Below, piece by piece: positions 51,980 to 62,532 of a DNA stretch of 64,000 nt (position 1 is its first letter; each line of letters starts with the position of its first letter). The position numbers were made by a program, and so were the translations under genes. Source of the stretch: an uncultured Ignavibacteria bacterium (GTDB taxonomy: Bacteria; Bacteroidota; Ignavibacteria; Ch128b); NCBI GenBank assembly GCA_937944105.1, contig CALDZP010000034.1, positions 38,262 to 102,261 on the forward strand, written 5' to 3'. Under the pieces are notes generated by a model that did not search any database, was not told the origin of the DNA, and was given only the letters and a program-made list of their open reading frames with translations.

Positions 51980-54769
51980 ATGAATTTAAATGTAAAACCT
52001 ATCGTAAAAAGCTTTAATAAAACATATTTAATTTTGTTATTCTTTTTCTCATTAATGAATGTTTACTCTCAATCAAAAGGTTCAATTATTGGAACAGTTA
52101 GAGATGAGGTGACTGGTGAGCCGATTATAGGAGCAAATGTTCTCTTAGAAAATACAAGTTTTGGGGCAGCTTCCGATTTAAATGGTAAATTTCAGATTCG
52201 TGATGTTGAAGAGGGGCTTTATAACATTAAAATAAGTCATGTTGCCTATCAAACAAAAATTATAACAAATGTTGAAGTTAAATCAAAAGAGGTTACACAA
52301 CTTAATATAACACTTTCCAGTAATGTACTTGAAACACAAGAAATATTAGTTGAAACTAAATCGGATAAATCATATGAGAATGCTTTGTTGAATTTGCGAA
52401 AAAATTCTCAAAACATTTTAGATGGGATTAGTGCAGAACAAATTAGAAGAACCACAGATGGTCTAACCAGCGATATATTAAAAAGAATTACTGGATTAAC
52501 GATTAACGAAAATAAGTTTGTCAATATAAGGGGTACAAGTGAAAGGTATAATGTAACACAGTTAAACAATTCCAATATTACCAGCACCGAATCGGAGAAA
52601 AAAGCGTTTTCATTTGATTTACTTTCCGCTAATCTTCTGGAATATGCTAATGTTATTAAATCTTATACTCCTGATTTACCAGCAAATTTTGCAGGGGGTG
52701 TAGTTCAACTAAATACAATAAGTTTTCCTGAATATCTTAGAGCTTCGGCTGGTTATTCTACATCATATTCAGAGGGCACATCATTAAAAAGTTTTTCAAC
52801 ATACGAAAATGGAACAAACTTTTTTGGATTTGATAATGGTAGTAGAAAATTACCGGAAAACTTTCCTGATAATTTAAATAAATCAGGTTTAAATCGAGAT
52901 CAAATAAATGAATTAGCTAAAAGTTTAAAAAACATTTGGCAAACTAAGTCAGTTAAAGCACCATTAAATCAAAGCTTTTATTTTACAATTGGTGATGGTA
53001 CCAGATTGATTGGCAGTCAATTTGGATTTGTTACGGCCTTTAGCTATAAAAATGATCATAGAAATTCTTTCATTAATTTGAATGAATATGAATCTTCTGG
53101 TGAGAAAAGATTTGAATATGAAGGTATCAAGTCTTCAAAATCCGTAAACCTTGGAGGTTTATTAAATTTAAGCTATAAATTTAGCGATAATCATTTAATC
53201 TCATGGAGAAACCTTTATTCTCATAGCTCCGATGATGAAGTATCTTTATTACATGGATATCAATACACAGATGCGGGCAAGGAACAAAAGCAAACTGCTA
53301 TTAGATATACAGAACGAGATCTTTTATCGGCGCAAATATTTGGTGAACACTTCTTTCAAAATTTAAATGGATTAAGAGTTGATTGGCGATTTAGTTTAAG
53401 TAACTCCAGAAAGTTAGAACCAGATTATAGAAGAATATATTATGGTAGAGATATAGGTGACGACGGACCGTTCTATGCAGTTCTTGGTTTTCAACCAAAT
53501 CTTAAAAATGGTGGAAGGTTTTTCTCAAACCTTCATGATAAATCAAGGGGTTTAGCCGTAGATTTTAGAACCAATTTGTATTTATTGAGATTTAAGTTTG
53601 GTTTTTCTTATGATGTTACTAAAAGAGATTTTGCTTCTAGATTAATAAGCGTTATAATTAATGCTCCAGGAAATGGTTATACTGATTTTTCATTATTAAC
53701 ACTTCCCCTCGACAAAATTTTTGGTCCAGAGAATTTCAGAAAAAATGGATTTTCAATTGATGAATATCAGAATGGAACAAACAATTATTCTGCCTCTGAG
53801 GAGGTCATTTCATCATACTTAATGACGGAAATCCCTTTTCATTTTGTGAATAAAGAGATAAAAATTTTTGGTGGTTTCAGAATGGAGAACTCTTTACAGA
53901 AAATTAATTCAATGGATGTTAGTGGAGAAATTCCAATTTCGAATTACCTGAAAAAAATTGATTATTTACCTTCCATAAATTTTTTAATTAAACTTAATGA
54001 TTTTACCAATGTCAGATTTTCATACAGCCAGACTTTGAATCGCCCGGAACTTCGGGAGTTAGCACCTTTTGCTTATTTTGATTTTGCAACACAAACTTCT
54101 ATTCGTGGTAATCCAGATTTACAAAGATCATTTATCAAAAATTATGATTTAAGAATAGAAAGCCTTCCTGGTTTGGGTAAATTGATTTCTGCAAATGTTT
54201 TCTATAAAAGCATCTCTAATGCTATAGAAAAGGTTGTTGTTACTGGTAGTGCGCTTGGTTCTGAAAGAACTTTTATGAATGCTGATAAAGCCGAGGTTTA
54301 CGGTTTTGAACTTGAAGGTAGAATATCATTCGGTTTTATTTCAGATTATCTTGAAAATTTATCAATAAATGGAAACTATACAAGAATAAATTCTTTTGTT
54401 AATGTCAGAGGTACTGAGACAACTATCTCAAGGGAAAAAAGACCACTTCAAGGACAATCTCCATATGTTATCAATTTCGGGATTTATTTTGTAGAACCAA
54501 GTTTGGGTAGTTCCTTCACAGTCAATTATAATAAAATAGGAAAAAGAATTGTCGAAGTTGCGACAGCTTATCAGGACGATATAATTGAAAAACCAAGAGA
54601 TGTTATCGACATTAAAATATCTCAGACAGTATTGAAAGGATTTAGTCTAAGCTTAGGGATTAAAGATTTGTTAGCTCAGGATTACGCATTTGTACAAGGT
54701 GATTTGCCGGCAAGAATAATAAAAGCAAATACAACTTACTCATTAGGAATTAATTATAAACTAAACTAA
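51980..54769 (+). CDS. TonB-dependent receptor family outer membrane protein (CarboxypepD_reg N-terminal)
   Basis: Signal peptide, 'GSIIGTVRDEVTGEPIIGANV' CarbopepD_reg, plug-like region, long beta-barrel body. Confidence 0.65.
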   Translation: MNLNVKPIVKSFNKTYLILLFFFSLMNVYSQSKGSIIGTVRDEVTGEPIIGANVLLENTSFGAASDLNGKFQIRDVEEGLYNIKISHVAYQTKIITNVEVKSKEVTQLNITLSSNVLETQEILVETKSDKSYENALLNLRKNSQNILDGISAEQIRRTTDGLTSDILKRITGLTINENKFVNIRGTSERYNVTQLNNSNITSTESEKKAFSFDLLSANLLEYANVIKSYTPDLPANFAGGVVQLNTISFPEYLRASAGYSTSYSEGTSLKSFSTYENGTNFFGFDNGSRKLPENFPDNLNKSGLNRDQINELAKSLKNIWQTKSVKAPLNQSFYFTIGDGTRLIGSQFGFVTAFSYKNDHRNSFINLNEYESSGEKRFEYEGIKSSKSVNLGGLLNLSYKFSDNHLISWRNLYSHSSDDEVSLLHGYQYTDAGKEQKQTAIRYTERDLLSAQIFGEHFFQNLNGLRVDWRFSLSNSRKLEPDYRRIYYGRDIGDDGPFYAVLGFQPNLKNGGRFFSNLHDKSRGLAVDFRTNLYLLRFKFGFSYDVTKRDFASRLISVIINAPGNGYTDFSLLTLPLDKIFGPENFRKNGFSIDEYQNGTNNYSASEEVISSYLMTEIPFHFVNKEIKIFGGFRMENSLQKINSMDVSGEIPISNYLKKIDYLPSINFLIKLNDFTNVRFSYSQTLNRPELRELAPFAYFDFATQTSIRGNPDLQRSFIKNYDLRIESLPGLGKLISANVFYKSISNAIEKVVVTGSALGSERTFMNADKAEVYGFELEGRISFGFISDYLENLSINGNYTRINSFVNVRGTETTISREKRPLQGQSPYVINFGIYFVEPSLGSSFTVNYNKIGKRIVEVATAYQDDIIEKPRDVIDIKISQTVLKGFSLSLGIKDLLAQDYAFVQGDLPARIIKANTTYSLGINYKLN

Positions 54770-54791
54770 CACAATAAAGGAGTTAAATTTT

Positions 54792-56438
54792 ATGAAAAAT
54801 TTTAAAACATCACTTTTATCATTATTAATTTTATTCATTAGTCTACCTGTTCTAAATGTTTTTGCTCAATTAGCACCTGTAGATAGTATAATTCAAGGCA
54901 ACATAAATTCAAACGCTTATCTCTCAAGAACAAAAAAATATTTACTCCGTGGTTTTGTTAATGTAAATGAACCAGCAGTATTAACAATTGAACCGGGAAC
55001 TATTATTTACGGAGAAAAAGATTCTAAAGGTACTTTAATAATTAATCGTGGTGCAAAAATTATTGCAAATGGTACTAAGGAAAGTCCAATTGTTTTTACA
55101 AGTCAACAGCCTGTAGGGCAAAGAGGTCCTGGTGATTGGGGTGGAATAATTATAGCAGGAAAAGCAAGGATTAATGTTCCTGGAGGTACAGCTATAATCG
55201 AAGGAGGAACTGGAACAATTTATGGTGGTGGTGCTAATCCAGATGATAATGATAATAGTGGTATTCTTCGCTACGTTAGAATAGAATTCCCTGGAATTGC
55301 ATTTTTACCAGATAACGAAATTAATGGTTTAACACTTGGCGGAGTTGGGAAAGGAACAACTATTGAATATGTACAGGTAAGTTATTCAGGAGATGATTCT
55401 TTCGAATGGTTCGGTGGAAATGTTAATTGTCGTTATCTTGTGTCATTAAATGCTATAGATGACGATTTTGATATTGATTTTGGTTTTAGAGGAAATTTAC
55501 AATTTGGATTTGCTCTGAGAGATCCTAATTTGGCTGATATTAGTGGTTCAAACGGTTTTGAAACTGATAATGATGGAACTGGAACATATAACTCACCGAG
55601 AACTTTGCCAGTTATCTCAAATTTTACAGTAATAGGACCAATGAGTGATACATCTTTTACTGCATACAATCCAAACTTTAGACGAGGTGCTCACATTAGA
55701 AGAGCTGCTCAAACTTCAATCTATAATTCAATTGTAATGGGTTTCCCCGTTGGTTTGTTGCTTGATGGTTCTGCTGTTCGTTATGCGGCAGTGGGTGATA
55801 CTTTACAAATCAGAAATTCAATTTGGGCTGGGCTAAGAAAAAATAATGGAATAACAACAAATCAATCCGGTTTTAATGCTGAAGAGTGGTTTGATAATCC
55901 AACCTTTGGTAATCGTCGGTTTGTACAGTGCTCGCAAGTTGGTTTAATAGATCCTTTTAACTTGACTAACCCCAATCCTTTACCTTCAAGCAGTTCACCA
56001 GCAGTTAGTGGTGCAAGTTTTTCAAATCCTAGACTTTCTACATTTTTTACACAAACAACTTATGTTGGTGCTTTTAGTCCAACCGAACCAAGATGGGATG
56101 AAGGATGGACTAACTATAATCCACAATATACAAATTATGCAACCGGTGTAGATGAATATAATGTTTCAGTCAACTCATTTGAATTATTTCAAAATTATCC
56201 GAATCCATTTAACCCATCGACAAAAATTTCGTTTTCACTTCCTGAAAATGGTTTAACAACTTTAAAAATTTTCAATTCACTCGGTGAAGAAATTAAGACT
56301 CTGGTTAATGCTGAACTTGAAGCAGGAAAAATTTATACCGTTGAATTTAATGCTTCAGATTTATCCAGTGGAATTTACTTTGCAAAATTAAGTCAATCGA
56401 AGAACTTTAAAGTCATAAAGATGCTTTTGTCAAAATAA
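54792..56438 (+). CDS. Secreted Gly-rich beta-helix-like protein with T9SS C-terminal sorting domain
   Basis: Signal peptide; 'LFQNYPNPFNPSTKISF...GIYFAKL' CTD. Confidence 0.5.
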   Translation: MKNFKTSLLSLLILFISLPVLNVFAQLAPVDSIIQGNINSNAYLSRTKKYLLRGFVNVNEPAVLTIEPGTIIYGEKDSKGTLIINRGAKIIANGTKESPIVFTSQQPVGQRGPGDWGGIIIAGKARINVPGGTAIIEGGTGTIYGGGANPDDNDNSGILRYVRIEFPGIAFLPDNEINGLTLGGVGKGTTIEYVQVSYSGDDSFEWFGGNVNCRYLVSLNAIDDDFDIDFGFRGNLQFGFALRDPNLADISGSNGFETDNDGTGTYNSPRTLPVISNFTVIGPMSDTSFTAYNPNFRRGAHIRRAAQTSIYNSIVMGFPVGLLLDGSAVRYAAVGDTLQIRNSIWAGLRKNNGITTNQSGFNAEEWFDNPTFGNRRFVQCSQVGLIDPFNLTNPNPLPSSSSPAVSGASFSNPRLSTFFTQTTYVGAFSPTEPRWDEGWTNYNPQYTNYATGVDEYNVSVNSFELFQNYPNPFNPSTKISFSLPENGLTTLKIFNSLGEEIKTLVNAELEAGKIYTVEFNASDLSSGIYFAKLSQSKNFKVIKMLLSK

Positions 56439-56457
56439 TCTTAACTTGGTTGATATT

Positions 56458-56487
56458 ACCTGTATCTCCAGATATGGAGGTACAGGT
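56458..56487. other. 12-bp near-perfect hairpin between T9SS-cargo gene and fimbrial operon
   Basis: ACCTGTATCTCC-agatat-GGAGGTACAGGT (one G-U pair); no adjacent T-run. Confidence 0.4.
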
Positions 56488-56619
56488 AAACTTAATATTC
56501 AACATTTTTTATTTAGTAATTAATTACTTTGTTGCTGTAATTTAGATTAGCCATTTAATAATCCCAGACTTATTATTTATTATCATTCCTTTTTATTAAT
56601 TAATTTTTTAACTTTAATC

Positions 56620-57141
56620 ATGATTAGATTGATTAAACATACATTAATGTTTTTCCTAATGTATAACTTATGCATTGGACAACAGTATAACATTTCTGCA
56701 ACTGGACAGGTTAATATGATAAAACCACTTTCAATTACTTCGATTAACAGCACAATAAATTTTGGGGAAATTATCTTAAGTGGTTCTAATTTCATAAAAA
56801 GTCTGAGTCCATCGGAAGGAGCAATTTTTAAGATTGAGGGTCATCCAAATCGAAATGTAATAATTTCTTTTAACCCGGTGACTCTTTCCAATTCAGAATG
56901 GGTCGCTCAAAATGGTGGAACACTTGGTACGTTAAATTTTGAAGCAAATGTTGTTCATACTGGAGCGAATTCGTCTTATCAATCTCCTGTTTCTGTACAA
57001 AATGGAAATTCATATCAGCTTGTAAATTCGTCTGGTATAGGCATTTTGTATTTATGGGTTGGTGGTTCAATAAATATTCAAGCTAATCAGCCAGTAGGGG
57101 ATTACCAGGGAATATTCAGTATAATGGTATCTTATCAATGA
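56620..57141 (+). CDS. SCPU/CsuA-like fimbrial-subunit-like secreted protein (paralog 1 of operon)
   Basis: Signal peptide; 'INFGEIILSGS', 'HTGANSSY', 'LYLWVGGS', C-terminal 'GDYQGIFSIMVSY'; about 45% identical to the 48057 paralog. Confidence 0.5.
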   Translation: MIRLIKHTLMFFLMYNLCIGQQYNISATGQVNMIKPLSITSINSTINFGEIILSGSNFIKSLSPSEGAIFKIEGHPNRNVIISFNPVTLSNSEWVAQNGGTLGTLNFEANVVHTGANSSYQSPVSVQNGNSYQLVNSSGIGILYLWVGGSINIQANQPVGDYQGIFSIMVSYQ

Positions 57142-57650
57142 AAAAATATATTTTAATGATTTTATTTTTTCTTTTTTCAGTTGATTGTTGGAGTCAGACT
57201 AATGAAACAGCGAGCCTTAATATAAGAGCTTCGCTAAAGAGAGGGATCAGTGTTCTTAATCAAAATAACATTTTAAGTTTTGGGGAAATTATTTTGTCAG
57301 GTTCATCTTTTGAATTAAATAAATCACCTCAAGAAGGATTAAGATTTAAGATTTTTTCAGATCCAGCAAAACCTGTTATGATAAGTTATAGTAATGTTGA
57401 GTTAAATTTATCAACTAATTCTGGGAATTTGACAAATGATAATTTACTTTTTGTTCCGAAGGTTTATCATACTGGTGGTAATTCTGATTTTATAGATCCA
57501 GTTGAAGTATTTTCTGGAATTTATTATCAACCACAAAATCAATCTGGTGAAGGTATTTTAAATTTATGGATTGGAGGAACACTTAAAATAAGTCAGTCAA
57601 ATATTCAAGGTGATTATTCAGGCACACTTATAATAACAATTGCATATTAA
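57138..57650 (+). CDS. SCPU/CsuA-like fimbrial-subunit-like secreted protein (paralog 2)
   Basis: Signal peptide; 'SFGEIILSGS', 'YHTGGNS', 'LNLWIGGT', C-terminal 'GDYSGTLIITIAY'; 4-nt overlap with the upstream gene. Confidence 0.5.
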   Translation: MKKYILMILFFLFSVDCWSQTNETASLNIRASLKRGISVLNQNNILSFGEIILSGSSFELNKSPQEGLRFKIFSDPAKPVMISYSNVELNLSTNSGNLTNDNLLFVPKVYHTGGNSDFIDPVEVFSGIYYQPQNQSGEGILNLWIGGTLKISQSNIQGDYSGTLIITIAY

Positions 57651-58116
57651 AATGATGAAAATTCGATTTTATATTTATGTTATAGTTTTTATAATTCTTT
57701 CATATAGTTGTGGCTTCGGTCAATTAATTATTCAAAAAATTAATGATTTAGATTTTGGTGATGTATTTATTGGTTATTCTGCCACGGTGAGTGATCTTTC
57801 ACCAAATGCTGCAAAATTTTTAGTTTATCAAAATTCACAACCACGAGTGGATTTACTTGTTAAATTTACTTTACCTTCTCAACTCACTAATGGGCAAAAT
57901 TCAGTCTCAATAGATTTTAATAATTTTGCTTCATGGGCAAGAGATGATGTTCAGACTGGCAGAATTTACTTTAATCCATATTCTCCTGTATTAATTAAAA
58001 ATGTACGTAGAAATAGGTATCATTATATCTGGTTGGGAGGGACAATTATGAGTTCTTCTGATATCTTACCTGGTTTATATACAGGAACAATCATTCTAAC
58101 TGTAGAGGTATTGTAG
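57640..58116 (+). CDS. Divergent SCPU-like small secreted protein (paralog 3; minor subunit or adaptor candidate)
   Basis: Signal peptide; 'DFGDVFIG', 'IWLGGT', C-terminal 'GLYTGTIILTVEVL'. Confidence 0.4.
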   Translation: MHIKMMKIRFYIYVIVFIILSYSCGFGQLIIQKINDLDFGDVFIGYSATVSDLSPNAAKFLVYQNSQPRVDLLVKFTLPSQLTNGQNSVSIDFNNFASWARDDVQTGRIYFNPYSPVLIKNVRRNRYHYIWLGGTIMSSSDILPGLYTGTIILTVEVL

Positions 58117-58117
58117 T

Positions 58118-58948
58118 ATGAAAAGAAAAATAATTGTTTTAATTACTTTTTATTTTGTTAGTAATTTGTATTCTCAAATTTTAATTTCACCTTATATTGT
58201 TTACACAGATAATAAGAATAAAATAGGCAATTTTATCGTTCAAAATGAATCAGAAAATATCTATGAAATAAATGTAGGATTTCTTTTTGGTTATCCTGTA
58301 TCAGACTCAATAGGACAAATTTCAATGAAATATATTGAGAATGATTCATCTTATTCTTACTCAATAAATAATTTTATTAGAGCATTCCCTAAAAAATTTA
58401 TTCTTGAACCCAAGAAACGACAGATTGTTCGTTTAACAGTAAAAGCTCCAGATACACTTGCAAATGGAACTTACTGGACAAGAATAATTACCTCAGCGGT
58501 GCCTTATTCAGAACAGATAGATTCAATTTCGAGTGGCTTGACAGCAAAAATTAAATTTGTCTTGAATCAGGTAACGACTTGTATGTACCGAGTTAATCCA
58601 GCGGAAAGTGGACTAAAGGTTGAAAACCATGAAGTGAAATATGATTCGAACACAACTACTTTAGTATTAAATTTAAAAAGAGTTGGCAACTCACCTTTTA
58701 TTGGAAATCTTTTAATGAAAATCCTTGACGAAGAGGGTAATGTCATCAAAGAATTAATTGAGTATGTTCCAGTATATTTTGATCTTCAAAAAAGGTTTGT
58801 TTTTAATAATTCAGATTTCGAACCAAACAAAAGTTATATTATCCAAATAACCGCAAGTAATATCGAAAAAGAAGAAATTCCTGAAAGTACTTTAAAGGTA
58901 GTGGTAGTTCCTGAATTAAAGATCCCAATAGAAATTCCATTTAATTAA
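58118..58948 (+). CDS. Periplasmic fimbrial-chaperone-like (PapD/CsuC-like) protein
   Basis: Signal peptide; 'ISPYIVYTD...NFIVQNESENIYEINV' resembles the chaperone N-domain (RxIY...vxN) and 'FILEPKKRQIVRLTV' the PPlFrL block; about 270 aa, typical size. Confidence 0.45.
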   Translation: MKRKIIVLITFYFVSNLYSQILISPYIVYTDNKNKIGNFIVQNESENIYEINVGFLFGYPVSDSIGQISMKYIENDSSYSYSINNFIRAFPKKFILEPKKRQIVRLTVKAPDTLANGTYWTRIITSAVPYSEQIDSISSGLTAKIKFVLNQVTTCMYRVNPAESGLKVENHEVKYDSNTTTLVLNLKRVGNSPFIGNLLMKILDEEGNVIKELIEYVPVYFDLQKRFVFNNSDFEPNKSYIIQITASNIEKEEIPESTLKVVVVPELKIPIEIPFN

Positions 58949-58953
58949 AAGTT

Positions 58954-61900
58954 ATGTTCTGCTTGCTCTTAATATTTTTGAGTTTTTTGGACGTTTATAT
59001 TACCTCTGATTATCCTACTACAAATGTTTATACTTCAAACATTGAATTTTTCTATGCACGTAATTTCCAAGATGAAACTGAAATTGAAGTGATTAATAAT
59101 CTAAATCCGACGCTAAGATGGTTCAAAGTAAATGATGCTATTAAGTATTTAATAGTAATCAATGAATTTGAAGGAAATAATTTGAAATCAAAACCAGTAA
59201 TTATTCGTTACTTTGAGGTACAGGATACATTTTTTGTTATTCCATCTCTAATCCTTGAAGATGGGAAAATATATAGTTGGAATGTAAGGTCATTTAACGG
59301 AAAGCTATGGAGTAATTTTGGAAAAGAATTTTATTTTAAAGTATTCTTAAAAGATTCGAAAGCTCAATCTGATGATAAAACAATAAGTACAATTTCTCCT
59401 GGCAAACTGTCTCCAGAAATTGAATTAATAAACACCATTAACCCAGTATTTAAGTGGTTCAAAATTAAATCGGCAGATTATTATAATTTTATTCTTGAAA
59501 AAGAAGAAAAGCCGGGGAGTTACAAAAAAATTTTATCCTCAGAAAATTTTGGTACAATAAGTGATACTTTTCTTATTCTGCAGGGTAGTCTACTTAAACA
59601 GGGAAATTTATATCGATGGAGAGTTTGGTGTAAAAACAAATTCGGTTTGTTATTGAAATCAGATTATAGATACTTTAAAGTTTCTTTACCAAAAATTTTA
59701 GTTGTACCTGAACCGATTTACCCAGGATATTCTTCTGAAGGGAAAGAAATACTGGCTACCACAACTCCAACATTTATATGGGGGAAAAATCCTTCAGCAA
59801 GTTCTTATTCAGTTGCAATAAGTAAGAAAGATTCTGATGGGAAATACAGACTTATTTTTGACAGTGAAAAAAATTTTAAGATAATAGATACATTCTTCAT
59901 TTTACCTCCCAATATTATTGAGAATAATTCGGAATACAGGTGGAATCTAAAAGTGAATTTGAAAGATGGAAGAACTCTCTACTCAAAAAGATTATATTTC
60001 AAAGTGATTTTTGAAGAACAAAAAACATTGGAAAAGTTTATCCAGAATGAAAGCACTAAAAATGAATTGGAAGAATTTTCATTGAATATGGAATATGCTG
60101 GTATATTTAAAAATCTTGTTTCATCAATCTACCTTGATGAAAAAATATTTATTTCGCTTTCAGAATTTTTATCGAATCTGCAAATTCCATTTGAAAAAAA
60201 GGGAAAAAATATATTCACAGGTTACATTAATGATGATAAAAATAATTTTACAATTGATTTTACTCAAAACAGAATAAAAAAGCAGGGGATTGAATTAAAA
60301 ATCAATCCAGAAGATTTCATCGAATATAATGAAGATTATTTTGTATCAACTTCCTTTTGTGAAAAATTTTTACCTCTTAAATTAGAATTTGATTTTTCTA
60401 ATCTTACCTTAAGCGTTTTAAGTGAAGTAGTATTACCCGTTTATTCTAAATATATTATTGAACAAAGATTGACATCATTAAGAAAAAATGAAAAAGTAAA
60501 AACACTACCTCTTCTTTTCAATAGAGAAAGATATTTACTTAATGGTTTTATTTTAGATTACTCTTTATCTCAAACTTATGTAAAGCATCAAAGAAGCGGA
60601 TACTTTTACAGACTTGCCTTTGGTGGTGAGCTACTTTATGGGGATTTTTATTATTCTCGTCAGCAATTTTTCTCTCAGAATTTTAAAAGTAACGTTGAAG
60701 ATATTAATTGGAAATTTATTTTTAATCCGAACAAATATATTACTCAAATTTCACTCGGTGATAATTTTATTGATGCAATTAACATTTACACATATCGTGG
60801 ATTTATGTTGACAAATGAAGTCGTTGAACCACGAAAAAAAATTGGCAATTATATTTTTCAAGATAAAACAGATCCGAGCAGCTTAGTGGAGTTGTATATA
60901 AATAATGAGTTATATGATATAAAAAGATCAAATGAAAATGGTGATTTTTCATTTGAGATTCCATTGAATTACGGAATGTCCAACCTCGAATTAAGAATTC
61001 ATACATTAATGGGAGAAACAAAAAGTCTTCGAAGAGTTTTCCAGATTCCTTATGAATTTTTACCAGCAGGTATTTTCAATTATAAAACCACTGCTGGTGT
61101 AATAAAGTTTACAAATAAAAAATTTGCATACTCTGAATTTAGTTACGGTATTGCTGATTATTTTACTCTTGCTACAGGTGGAGAATTTATTTATGATTCT
61201 ACAAATAAATATCTAAACTACTTTGGAAAATCTTCTTTCAGAATTTTGCCTAATTTCTATTTAAACCTATTCTACTCACCAAAGATTTTTACAAAAATTC
61301 AAGGTTCATATATAGGATCTAATTTTACTTCTTATAGTTTCGAATATATTGACAATAAAAATCATAAATTTTATAACCCATCAAGAATTAATAAATCATA
61401 TAAAGGTAGCTTCTTTTTACCATTGAAACTCGAAAATAATGAGCTGGGATTTTATTTTAATCAAGAATATTTTAAGTCAGATTTCATCAAAAGATATAAT
61501 ATAAATGTCAATGCTTTTTATCTATACAAATGGTTGGCTTTCAATCTTGGAATTATAAATGAGAATCTTTACTCTAACATAAAAATAATTAGAAGAGAAA
61601 TAACAGGTGGAACTAACATTAATTTTAATACATTTACAAATAGTAACTCAATTTTGAATCGAAGTTATTTATCAATTCGTGCTAATTACAACCTTTTAGT
61701 AAAAGATTTTCAAAGTCTCTCTGTTTTCGCAGCCACAACATTTCTAAATAGTATTAGATTTCAAATAAGTTTTGAAAGATTATTTAAGATTAATGTTACT
61801 AATGTAAGTGTAAATTTATTTTTAGATCTTCCGCAAGCAAGATATTTCGTTAATTCAAATTTAAAAGATGTAATCAATCAACAAATAAGTGGATCGATTG

Positions 61901-62532
61901 GTTATAGTTCACAAATAAATCAACTATATCTTTACAGCGAACCACAAATTGGTCGCTCAGCAATTTATATTGAAGGCTTTGAAGATAGAAATATGAATGA
62001 AAAAAAAGATGGAAATGAGAACATTGTCAAAGATTTAAATTTCTCTATTAATTCTGCATCATATTCTAAAAATTTAAAAGATGGGAAGCTAATTTTAGGT
62101 TTGAATCAATATCAAGAATATAGTTTAAGAGTTATAGATTTTAGAATGAGTGAATTAAATTTATCTACTGAGTTTTCAGAATTTAAGCTCTTAACCGATG
62201 GAAATAGAATAAAAGTAATTAGATTACCTTTTTATGAAACTGGGGAAATTGGCGGATTGGTTCTTCGTAATATTAAGAATGAAGAGATCCCAGTTCGTAA
62301 TGTGAAAATTATAATTACGAATTTATCGACTCAAAAAGAATACATTATTAATACGTTCAGTGACGGTTCGTTTTATTTATACGGGTTAAGGAAAGGAAAA
62401 TATGTAATAAGAGTTGATGAGAATTATTTAAATCGTCATTCTTTGAAATCAAATCCTGAACAAATTGAACTTGAAATTGACCCAACAAAGAATCAACTAA
62501 TCTTTGAAGAATTAAAATTTACTCTGTATTAA
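58954..62532 (+). CDS. Outer-membrane usher-like protein, unusually large (1192 aa)
   Basis: 'VELYINNELYDIKRSNENGDFSFEIPLNYGMSNLELRIH...FQIPYE' aligns with the conserved usher block (VyvNg...GpF.i..lp..G.n.l.v...G....f.vP); beta-rich body; C-terminal beta-sandwich (CarbopepD_reg-like); three N-terminal W-rich repeats of about 100 aa. Confidence 0.5.
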   Translation: MFCLLLIFLSFLDVYITSDYPTTNVYTSNIEFFYARNFQDETEIEVINNLNPTLRWFKVNDAIKYLIVINEFEGNNLKSKPVIIRYFEVQDTFFVIPSLILEDGKIYSWNVRSFNGKLWSNFGKEFYFKVFLKDSKAQSDDKTISTISPGKLSPEIELINTINPVFKWFKIKSADYYNFILEKEEKPGSYKKILSSENFGTISDTFLILQGSLLKQGNLYRWRVWCKNKFGLLLKSDYRYFKVSLPKILVVPEPIYPGYSSEGKEILATTTPTFIWGKNPSASSYSVAISKKDSDGKYRLIFDSEKNFKIIDTFFILPPNIIENNSEYRWNLKVNLKDGRTLYSKRLYFKVIFEEQKTLEKFIQNESTKNELEEFSLNMEYAGIFKNLVSSIYLDEKIFISLSEFLSNLQIPFEKKGKNIFTGYINDDKNNFTIDFTQNRIKKQGIELKINPEDFIEYNEDYFVSTSFCEKFLPLKLEFDFSNLTLSVLSEVVLPVYSKYIIEQRLTSLRKNEKVKTLPLLFNRERYLLNGFILDYSLSQTYVKHQRSGYFYRLAFGGELLYGDFYYSRQQFFSQNFKSNVEDINWKFIFNPNKYITQISLGDNFIDAINIYTYRGFMLTNEVVEPRKKIGNYIFQDKTDPSSLVELYINNELYDIKRSNENGDFSFEIPLNYGMSNLELRIHTLMGETKSLRRVFQIPYEFLPAGIFNYKTTAGVIKFTNKKFAYSEFSYGIADYFTLATGGEFIYDSTNKYLNYFGKSSFRILPNFYLNLFYSPKIFTKIQGSYIGSNFTSYSFEYIDNKNHKFYNPSRINKSYKGSFFLPLKLENNELGFYFNQEYFKSDFIKRYNINVNAFYLYKWLAFNLGIINENLYSNIKIIRREITGGTNINFNTFTNSNSILNRSYLSIRANYNLLVKDFQSLSVFAATTFLNSIRFQISFERLFKINVTNVSVNLFLDLPQARYFVNSNLKDVINQQISGSIGYSSQINQLYLYSEPQIGRSAIYIEGFEDRNMNEKKDGNENIVKDLNFSINSASYSKNLKDGKLILGLNQYQEYSLRVIDFRMSELNLSTEFSEFKLLTDGNRIKVIRLPFYETGEIGGLVLRNIKNEEIPVRNVKIIITNLSTQKEYIINTFSDGSFYLYGLRKGKYVIRVDENYLNRHSLKSNPEQIELEIDPTKNQLIFEELKFTLY

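Follow-up and report, generated by a model that had tools for sequence, protein, structure and literature searches.

Outer-membrane ushers such as FimD, PapC, Caf1A and CsuD are, as far as we know, treated as self-contained platforms of about 800-870 amino acids (aa). An open reading frame (ORF) of 1192 aa from an uncultured Ignavibacteria bacterium raises the question of what the additional residues of a much longer usher-like protein are and on which side of the outer membrane they act. The ORF is located at 58954..62532 (+) in a window of 64,000 nucleotides (nt), which was analysed as a whole (GenBank assembly GCA_937944105.1, contig CALDZP010000034.1, positions 38,262 to 102,261) and to which all coordinates refer. 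A preliminary description had noted three tryptophan-containing tandem repeats at the N-terminus and proposed for them either a fused adhesin or a periplasm-spanning extension. The analysis reported here favours, with moderate confidence, the following reading as a whole: the genes of 56620..62532 form a pilus operon of the chaperone-usher type that belongs to a very divergent clade, and its usher bears an accessory arm which would remain in the periplasm and engage the cell envelope.

The coordinates and the length of the ORF were reproduced. It starts with an ATG codon, and since an in-frame stop codon is located 9 nt 5′ of this ATG, the start cannot be moved further upstream. The three repeat units of ~100 aa each (R1, R2 and R3; Table 1) are mutually homologous, with pairwise Smith-Waterman scores of 102-152 compared to a mean of ~29 for shuffled sequences (z 13.9-23.7; 0 of 500 shuffles attained the observed score). 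Comparison of the family profiles by hhalign, with each unit represented by 14 orthologues, gave probabilities of 98.7-99.7% (E 4e-16 to 2e-25). By these two sets of scores low-complexity sequence, which had been named as a possible pitfall, was ruled out, and the repeats are statistically real. The amino-acid identity among R1-R3 is ~30% and no repeat or composition break was found at the DNA level across the usher region; the triplication is thus old.

The arrangement as FN3-like beta-sandwiches was likewise supported by prediction. In a model of the usher predicted by AlphaFold2 (AF2) from an alignment of 15 sequences, each repeat consists of seven strands with a predicted local distance difference test score (pLDDT) of ~63-86, and Foldseek aligned the R1-R3 array to triple FN3 arrays, e.g. 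contactin FN1-FN3 (E ~1e-7). In the window protein the repeats were missed by the Pfam models Ig_Rha78A_N (PF25788) and fn3 (PF00041), just below threshold, and a further sub-threshold match, to DUF928, was located at residues 266-337 within R3. The same Ig_Rha78A_N and fn3 models scored above their curated cut-offs in the relatives P0016, P0019, P0027 and P0069, and the repeats of the close homologue P0004 reached 26.1 bits versus a cut-off of 27.4. The W and Y motifs lie at what we take to be FN3 core positions, namely the strand-B Trp and the strand-F 'Y-x-W/Y-x-V'. R1-R3 are genuine ancient repeats, predicted as FN3/Ig_Rha78A_N-like domains, which were added before the usher N-terminal domain. 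Mean identities among orthologues of 0.56 (R1), 0.49 (R2) and 0.64 (R3) are on par with those of the usher core (0.45-0.67), while the linkers reach only 0.19-0.23. As the identity of each repeat to its orthologues far exceeds the identity between repeats, the three positions are individually maintained. The same type of repeat also builds up giant non-usher proteins with 10-33 units in a row, i.e. P0027 (1759 aa), P0037 (3283 aa), P0051, P0124 and P0148, one of them with a DUF4347 head and one with PKD and CarboxypepD_reg tails, so that the usher repeats represent a widely used building block.

Judged from the predicted fold and from its relatives, the 1192-aa protein is very probably a highly divergent outer-membrane usher. 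The AF2 model (pLDDT 67, predicted template modelling score (pTM) 0.42) shows good confidence over the repeats and the greater part of the barrel. It comprises, in this order, a signal helix at residues 3-13, within a stretch (1-41) of pLDDT < 50, sandwiches at residues 44-352, a disordered linker at 353-372, an alpha/beta domain at 373-490, a helix at 495-509, barrel strands at 529-620, a sandwich at 629-698, ~18 more strands to ~1010 and two terminal sandwiches, the first of which (C-terminal domain 1) is of low confidence. With 6 strands before and ~18 after the plug, about 24 strands are predicted for the barrel, as for a large usher barrel. In PapC and FimD the plug sits between barrel strands 6 and 7, which is diagnostic of the usher plan, and in the model a six-strand module (629-698) follows barrel strand 6 before the barrel resumes at residue 708. 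This plug region is the most conserved part of the protein, with 0.67 orthologue identity. Two independent methods of structural comparison both ranked FimD and PapC first, at an identity of 11-15%, and the top 17 PDB matches of Foldseek were all FimD/PapC (E 1.3e-19 to 6e-10, 480-795 aligned columns), the alignments with full-length FimD covering 795 columns.

At the sequence level, Pfam Usher (PF00577), PapC_N and PapC_C gave no match in the window protein, PF00577 being absent even at E <= 1. Searches of PDB sequences by phmmer and with profiles, performed for the protein, the close family and the broad family, found no usher; the only matches were a Bap-like Ig one within the plug and a NOMO transthyretin-like one within C-terminal domain 2. 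P0049, a relative found with the family profile at E 1.6e-141, does match Pfam Usher with 53.7 bits versus a cut-off of 27.1 (E 2e-14), and its region equivalent to the plug aligns to positions 44-202 of that model. The model recognises only 3 of 44 family members at E <= 0.01, and the family therefore stays unannotated. The label usher-like given earlier is thus upheld by predicted fold and relatives with no direct Pfam match. A CarboxypepD_reg-like sandwich, reported earlier for the C-terminus, is present as a sub-threshold match at residues 1111-1155 and is matched by 37 of the 44 family members at E <= 0.01 (best E 5.7e-10). It does not belong to the additional residues, since it lies inside the ~830-aa core of relatives of 850-880 aa and represents C-terminal domain 2 of the usher family rather than an add-on. 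Weak likeness to Cu_amine_oxidN1 was seen in the N-terminal domain of some relatives, and sub-threshold SdrD_B-like matches occur in relatives at the position equivalent to C-terminal domain 1.

Homologous long ushers, sought as proposed earlier, were found. Fourteen close homologues from independent metagenomes or metagenome-assembled genomes labelled Ignavibacteria align end to end with 50-57% identity and lengths of 1157-1208 aa, while a Melioribacteraceae homologue (P0015) is 29% identical and has two repeats. An explanation of the ORF as a chimera of an FN3-repeat gene and an ordinary usher gene, created by a frameshift or misassembly, was given practically no weight. All 14 homologues align unbroken over residues 340-380 at the junction of repeats and core, which excludes a frameshift fusion, repeats are fused likewise in distant relatives with 1-6 units, and the region lacks any DNA repeat or composition break. 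Nothing was noted in favour of such an event.

An exhaustive profile search yielded 6706 cluster representatives at E < 1e-3 and 929 at E < 1e-30. The shared core of ~830 aa corresponds to query positions ~370-1197, and in relatives consisting of the core only, it begins at query position ~370 right after their signal peptides. The best 150 cluster representatives were re-scanned with separate core and repeat hidden Markov models, and 137 of them had a complete core. Core-only relatives accounted for 42 of the 137 (median length 868 aa), C-terminally extended ones for 79 (median extension 265 aa, range ~100-631 aa) and N-terminally extended ones with FN3-like repeats for 16; both extensions in one protein were found in none of the 137. 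In the 16 N-extended clusters the number of repeats was 1 in four, 2 in four, 3 in six, 5 in one and 6 in one. The core-only median and the FimD/PapC PDB chains of ~780-806 residues confirm the excess of ~350 aa described earlier for the protein of the window.

The domain content of the C-terminal extensions was obtained from ten scanned C-extended relatives. SPOR was detected in seven (P0035, P0036, P0041, P0049, P0055, P0060 and P0064), clearly above the Pfam cut-off in four and at or just under it in three. LysM was found in P0039 and TPR in P0040; P0069 has an FN3/Ig_Rha78A_N domain and, C-terminal to it, an OmpA domain. As periplasmic modules, SPOR, LysM and OmpA bind peptidoglycan, and a characterised usher that carries its own cell-wall anchor is not known to us. 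Database names exist for three relatives: 'hypothetical protein', 'carboxypeptidase regulatory-like domain-containing protein' and 'SPOR domain-containing protein'. The clade is found in Ignavibacteria, Melioribacteraceae, Bacteroidota and Kryptonia lineages, the broad taxonomy being taken from three cluster members with organism names; a search for related loci with the close-family alignment returned four Ignavibacteria loci only.

The usher gene is the last of five packed or overlapping genes, preceded by three DUF4402 subunit genes and a chaperone gene. This operon recurs with unrelated flanks in Ignavibacteria (L001), in Melioribacteraceae (L003) and on the contigs L008-L011, with ushers of different types. 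In subunit 1, whose DUF4402 match is above the cut-off, 26 residues separate the presumed cleavage site (..GQ) from FGE, and subunit 2 has an N-terminal segment of 27 residues; in both, this segment (25-28 residues) shows alternating hydrophobic residues. In subunit 3, a weak match to DUF4402, the segment is ~10 residues long and the alignment has an 18-column gap just past the signal peptide. The same holds across loci, as the subunit gene immediately preceding that of the chaperone lacks a post-signal segment of ~16-17 residues in 6 of 7 operons (window 57640-58116, L001 6742-7203, L003 6713-7177, L009 2036-2509, L008 5464-5952, L010 5214-6098), leaving 10-11 residues before the FG(D/E) motif versus 25-28 in the other subunits. 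In most operons this last subunit gene is missed by the Pfam DUF4402 model, and its product in the Kryptonia locus L010, with 294 aa, matches a two-domain protein in size.

The tip of a chaperone-usher pilus is formed by the subunit that has no donor strand. Subunit 3 lacks the N-terminal strand segment and is therefore a candidate tip subunit, and from the subunit sequences this third DUF4402 paralogue is likely to be the one incorporated first. It had been overlooked when no separate tip-adhesin gene was reported for the locus; it is a single-domain protein and not CsuE-sized. The C-termini of subunits 1 and 2 follow the pattern G-D-Y-x-G-x-hydrophobic-x-hydrophobic...Y-(Q), with Gly 13-14 residues from the end and Tyr last or next to last, which presumably resembles the classical fimbrial subunit signature. 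SCPU (PF05229) was found in 0 of the 28 subunit homologues scanned, all of which match DUF4402 alone, and a PDB profile search with the subunits returned no Csu or CupE pilin. Because DUF4402 genes are paired with the usher family, the DUF4402 domain has a probable pilin role.

For the chaperone of 276 aa, a two-Ig-domain PapD/CsuC-like fold was predicted by AF2 with good quality (pLDDT 87.6, pTM 0.78). Foldseek matched CsuC, EcpB, FimC, CfaA, Caf1M and SafB at E 1e-9 to 1e-7 and template modelling scores, TM(target), of 0.5-0.6, with CsuC among the best (E 1.6e-9). The top match was Enterococcus faecium WxLIP (9i1y, E 4e-10), and a sub-threshold match to Pfam WxLIP_PGBD (E 0.0019) was also obtained; on the predicted model this points to a structural kinship of WxLIP proteins and pilus chaperones. 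Pfam, NCBIfam and PDB sequence searches, including a profile against PDB sequences, gave no match for the chaperone. Two of its homologues carry the JGI name 'P pilus assembly chaperone PapD'.

Both termini of an usher are periplasmic, and its N-terminal domain receives the chaperone-subunit complexes. Since the array is joined to this domain by a linker of ~20 residues (identity 0.23), it would come to lie in the periplasm as well, and on the established usher topology this location is considered probable. P0069, in which the same repeat type stands between the usher C-terminus and the OmpA peptidoglycan-binding domain, shows a comparable placement. Threading of the array through the usher's own pore, so that it would be displayed on the surface in place of a separate tip adhesin, was judged most improbable. 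Such a fused adhesin, one of the two roles first proposed, could be invoked because the operon encodes no two-domain CsuE-like subunit and because the same repeats form long arrays in large, seemingly extracellular non-usher proteins (P0027, P0037, P0148). However, a tie of ~20 residues to the periplasmic N-terminal domain is too short for the array to cross the barrel and leave the pore alongside the fibre, and the repeats are predicted as complete seven-strand sandwiches without an open groove for a donor strand, so that they would take no part in donor-strand exchange. Moreover, a candidate tip subunit without donor strand is present in the operon, core-only ushers of the same operon type likewise lack a two-domain adhesin, and in P0069 the same domain type precedes a periplasmic OmpA domain.

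Of the other role first proposed, a periplasm-spanning extension, the periplasmic part fits usher topology and was retained. A spanning arm would require an uncleaved N-terminal segment anchored in the inner membrane, from which the array bridges to the usher, and is regarded as very unlikely. The ORF of the window and its closest relatives do lack an obvious A-x-A or ..AQ cleavage site, and a variable linker of 20-30 residues precedes R1, as would suit such an anchor. Against this, the N-termini of the N-extended relatives P0016, P0017, P0023, P0026 and P0033 resemble, by eye, classic signal peptides, with ..AQ or ..SQ at their end and the first repeat ('ISPG..') right behind, arrays of 1-6 repeats are incompatible with a single periplasmic width, and insertion into both membranes would conflict with the normal Sec-to-BAM route known for outer-membrane barrels.

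For the periplasmic array the following mode of action is proposed. After export by Sec and insertion of the barrel, the FN3 array would remain periplasmic, forming a flexible arm of ~10-12 nm, as we estimate from typical FN3 dimensions, tethered to the usher through the 20-residue linker. It would engage the envelope and thereby fix the place of the assembly platform with respect to the cell-wall layer, by positioning or anchoring it; alternatively or additionally, it may offer a surface for docking in the periplasm. A role in tethering or positioning is suggested tentatively, at somewhat less than even probability, by analogy to the sister ushers with C-terminal SPOR, LysM or OmpA peptidoglycan-binding modules. 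A larger proposal, that DUF4402 operons form a deep unrecognised branch of chaperone-usher systems whose ushers are routinely coupled to the envelope by modular periplasmic domains, either SPOR, LysM or OmpA at the C-terminus or 1-6 FN3 units at the N-terminus, with the triple-FN3 arm as a partner-specific connector, is speculative and rather unlikely to hold in full. If true, the arm would set where and how the pili assemble, and no such coupling is known from characterised ushers.

The array could instead handle substrate, i.e. provide a surface at which chaperone-subunit complexes or the base of the growing fibre dock or are handed over, without acting as a tether. This alternative, the main rival, is unlikely, and it draws on the conservation of the repeats (0.49-0.64), which is on par with that of the plug and the C-terminal domains and maintained position by position, and on the finding of no peptidoglycan-binding signature in the array. 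In addition, the array directly precedes the domain that receives the substrate, described as the chaperone-subunit entry site of ushers (PMC4654587). A repeat number varying from 1 to 6 among relatives of the same operon type would, however, be unexpected for a fixed docking geometry, and core-only ushers handle the same DUF4402 subunits and chaperone type without any array. The position-specific conservation looks like specific binding, whereas the variable repeat number looks like a spacer.

Several observations weigh against a divergent usher with an envelope-engaging periplasmic arm. The N-terminus of the window usher (MFCLLLIFLSFLDVYITS, 58954-59013) has neither a charged n-region nor a clear cleavage site. 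Most orthologues have a longer K/R-rich n-region, and the orthologous gene at L001 shares a 35-nt overlap with that of the chaperone; the window usher may have a weaker or shortened signal peptide. The AF2 model of the usher is moderate, with poor resolution of C-terminal domain 1 and of the final strands of the barrel, and Pfam, NCBIfam and PDB sequence searches give the window protein no direct usher link. Likewise, searches of PDB and Pfam with DUF4402 profiles did not connect them to pilins of the Csu, SCPU or Fimbrial type. A peptidoglycan-binding motif or domain was found neither in the FN3 array nor in any N-extended relative, so that the tether function is proposed by analogy, and the high position-specific conservation of the repeats favours a specific partner over a passive spacer. 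Finally, the 42 core-only relatives have no extension at all, and since the proteins most closely related to the query are the N-extended ones, the absence of double extensions is confounded by phylogeny.

Compared to FimD and PapC, the window usher has the same predicted domain order (N-terminal domain, barrel, plug after strand 6, two C-terminal sandwiches), and its gene likewise directly follows that of a PapD-fold chaperone. It differs in its triple-FN3 array, in the CarboxypepD_reg/transthyretin-like C-terminal domain 2 and in its subunits, which belong to DUF4402 and not to Fimbrial (PF00419). The archaic Csu system (CsuA/B-A-B-C-D-E) and Pseudomonas CupE are alike in combining several small paralogous subunits with one chaperone and one usher, and CsuC is structurally near the window chaperone. 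In contrast to them, the window system has neither a match to SCPU subunits nor a two-domain CsuE-like tip, and its usher bears accessory domains. The csuE tip gene is the last of the Csu operon, after the usher gene, whereas the candidate tip gene of the window precedes the chaperone gene. Since the Pfam Usher (directly), SCPU and Fimbrial models are all missed, the system was not filed under the classical or the archaic class. Archaic systems have been reported from Proteobacteria, Cyanobacteria and Deinococcus-Thermus, i.e. beyond enterobacteria (PMC4654587); the window system is likewise found outside enterobacteria, and Ignavibacteria, Bacteroidota and Kryptonia are not among the phyla given there.

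The sister ushers associated with DUF4402, such as P0035 (Candidatus Kryptonia) and P0069, share the ~830-aa core (E down to 1e-153) and the operon type, and carry an accessory module on a periplasmic end as in the window protein, P0069 even with the same FN3/Ig_Rha78A_N type. They carry these modules at the C-terminus, with known peptidoglycan-binding domains among them, whereas the module of the window protein is N-terminal, FN3-like only and free of any recognisable binding domain. For Ig_Rha78A_N and fn3 domains the context is new, since they are joined here to the periplasmic N-terminus of an usher and not to a glycoside hydrolase or a surface or extracellular protein. Taken from predicted structures and gene order, the folds, the neighbourhood and the donor-strand logic fit a system that operates like a chaperone-usher pilus. 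In the literature searched, no paper was found on DUF4402, on usher-SPOR fusions or on ushers in Ignavibacteria or Bacteroidota, the coverage being incomplete and the result an absence of evidence only.

The analysis thus provides a corrected annotation and a domain map for the ORF (Table 1), and points to a large usher family missed by current annotation (the 929 clusters at E < 1e-30), through whose pairing DUF4402 gains its probable role as pilin. Terminal accessory modules, and an N-terminal FN3 array in particular, are to our knowledge undescribed for characterised ushers. If such modules tether or position the usher, they would add a new layer to pilus biogenesis and offer a handle on the placement of outer-membrane assembly machines relative to the cell wall.

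Table 1. Features of the pilus operon and predicted domains of the long usher, with positions in the window.
Feature	Position	Strand	Basis
Hairpin, terminator-like	56456..56489	+	15-bp stem
DUF4402 subunit 1, candidate shaft, 173 aa	56620..57141	+	Pfam E 7.6e-07
DUF4402 subunit 2, 170 aa	57138..57650	+	Pfam E 4.3e-06
DUF4402-like subunit 3, candidate tip, 158 aa	57640..58116	+	Pfam E 0.022
Periplasmic pilus chaperone, 276 aa	58118..58948	+	AF2 and Foldseek
Long usher, 1192 aa, stop codon included	58954..62532	+	Fold, homologues
Presumed signal peptide and variable linker, residues 1-40	58954..59073	+	AF2, identity 0.19
Repeat R1, residues 41-140	59074..59373	+	Seven strands, pLDDT ~63-83
Repeat R2, residues 146-248	59389..59697	+	hhalign, AF2
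Repeat R3, residues 251-352	59704..60009	+	hhalign, AF2
Variable linker, residues 353-372	60010..60069	+	pLDDT < 50 at 355-371
Usher N-terminal alpha/beta domain, residues 373-490	60070..60423	+	Core start in relatives, AF2
Barrel strands 1-6, residues 529-620	60538..60813	+	DSSP on model
Plug, residues ~625-700	60826..61053	+	Strand order, identity 0.67
Remaining barrel strands, residues ~705-1010	61066..61983	+	
C-terminal domain 1, residues ~1011-1105, approximate boundary, low confidence	61984..62268	+	AF2
C-terminal domain 2, CarboxypepD_reg/transthyretin-like, residues ~1106-1192	62269..62529	+	Pfam E 0.0016

Upstream of the operon, an unusually long hairpin with a 4-nt loop lies between a gene for a cargo protein of the type IX secretion system (T9SS) and the first subunit gene. 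Its tail is T-poor (ACTTAATATT). The hairpin is terminator-like and not a canonical intrinsic terminator, and it is likely to act as terminator and to delimit the pilus operon on its 5′ side. Behind it come an AT-rich intergenic gap of 130 nt and the five operon genes. A promoter scan gave 41 sites compared to 41.4 in shuffled sequence, i.e. no excess. Further upstream, 51980-56438 comprises a gene for a TonB-dependent receptor (929 aa) and then one for a beta-helix protein of 548 aa with a T9SS Por_Secre_tail. This pair is syntenic at L001 1167-5563, in a 50%-identical Ignavibacteria genome, and is absent from the Melioribacteraceae locus; it is therefore regarded as neighbouring the pilus cassette and lying outside it.

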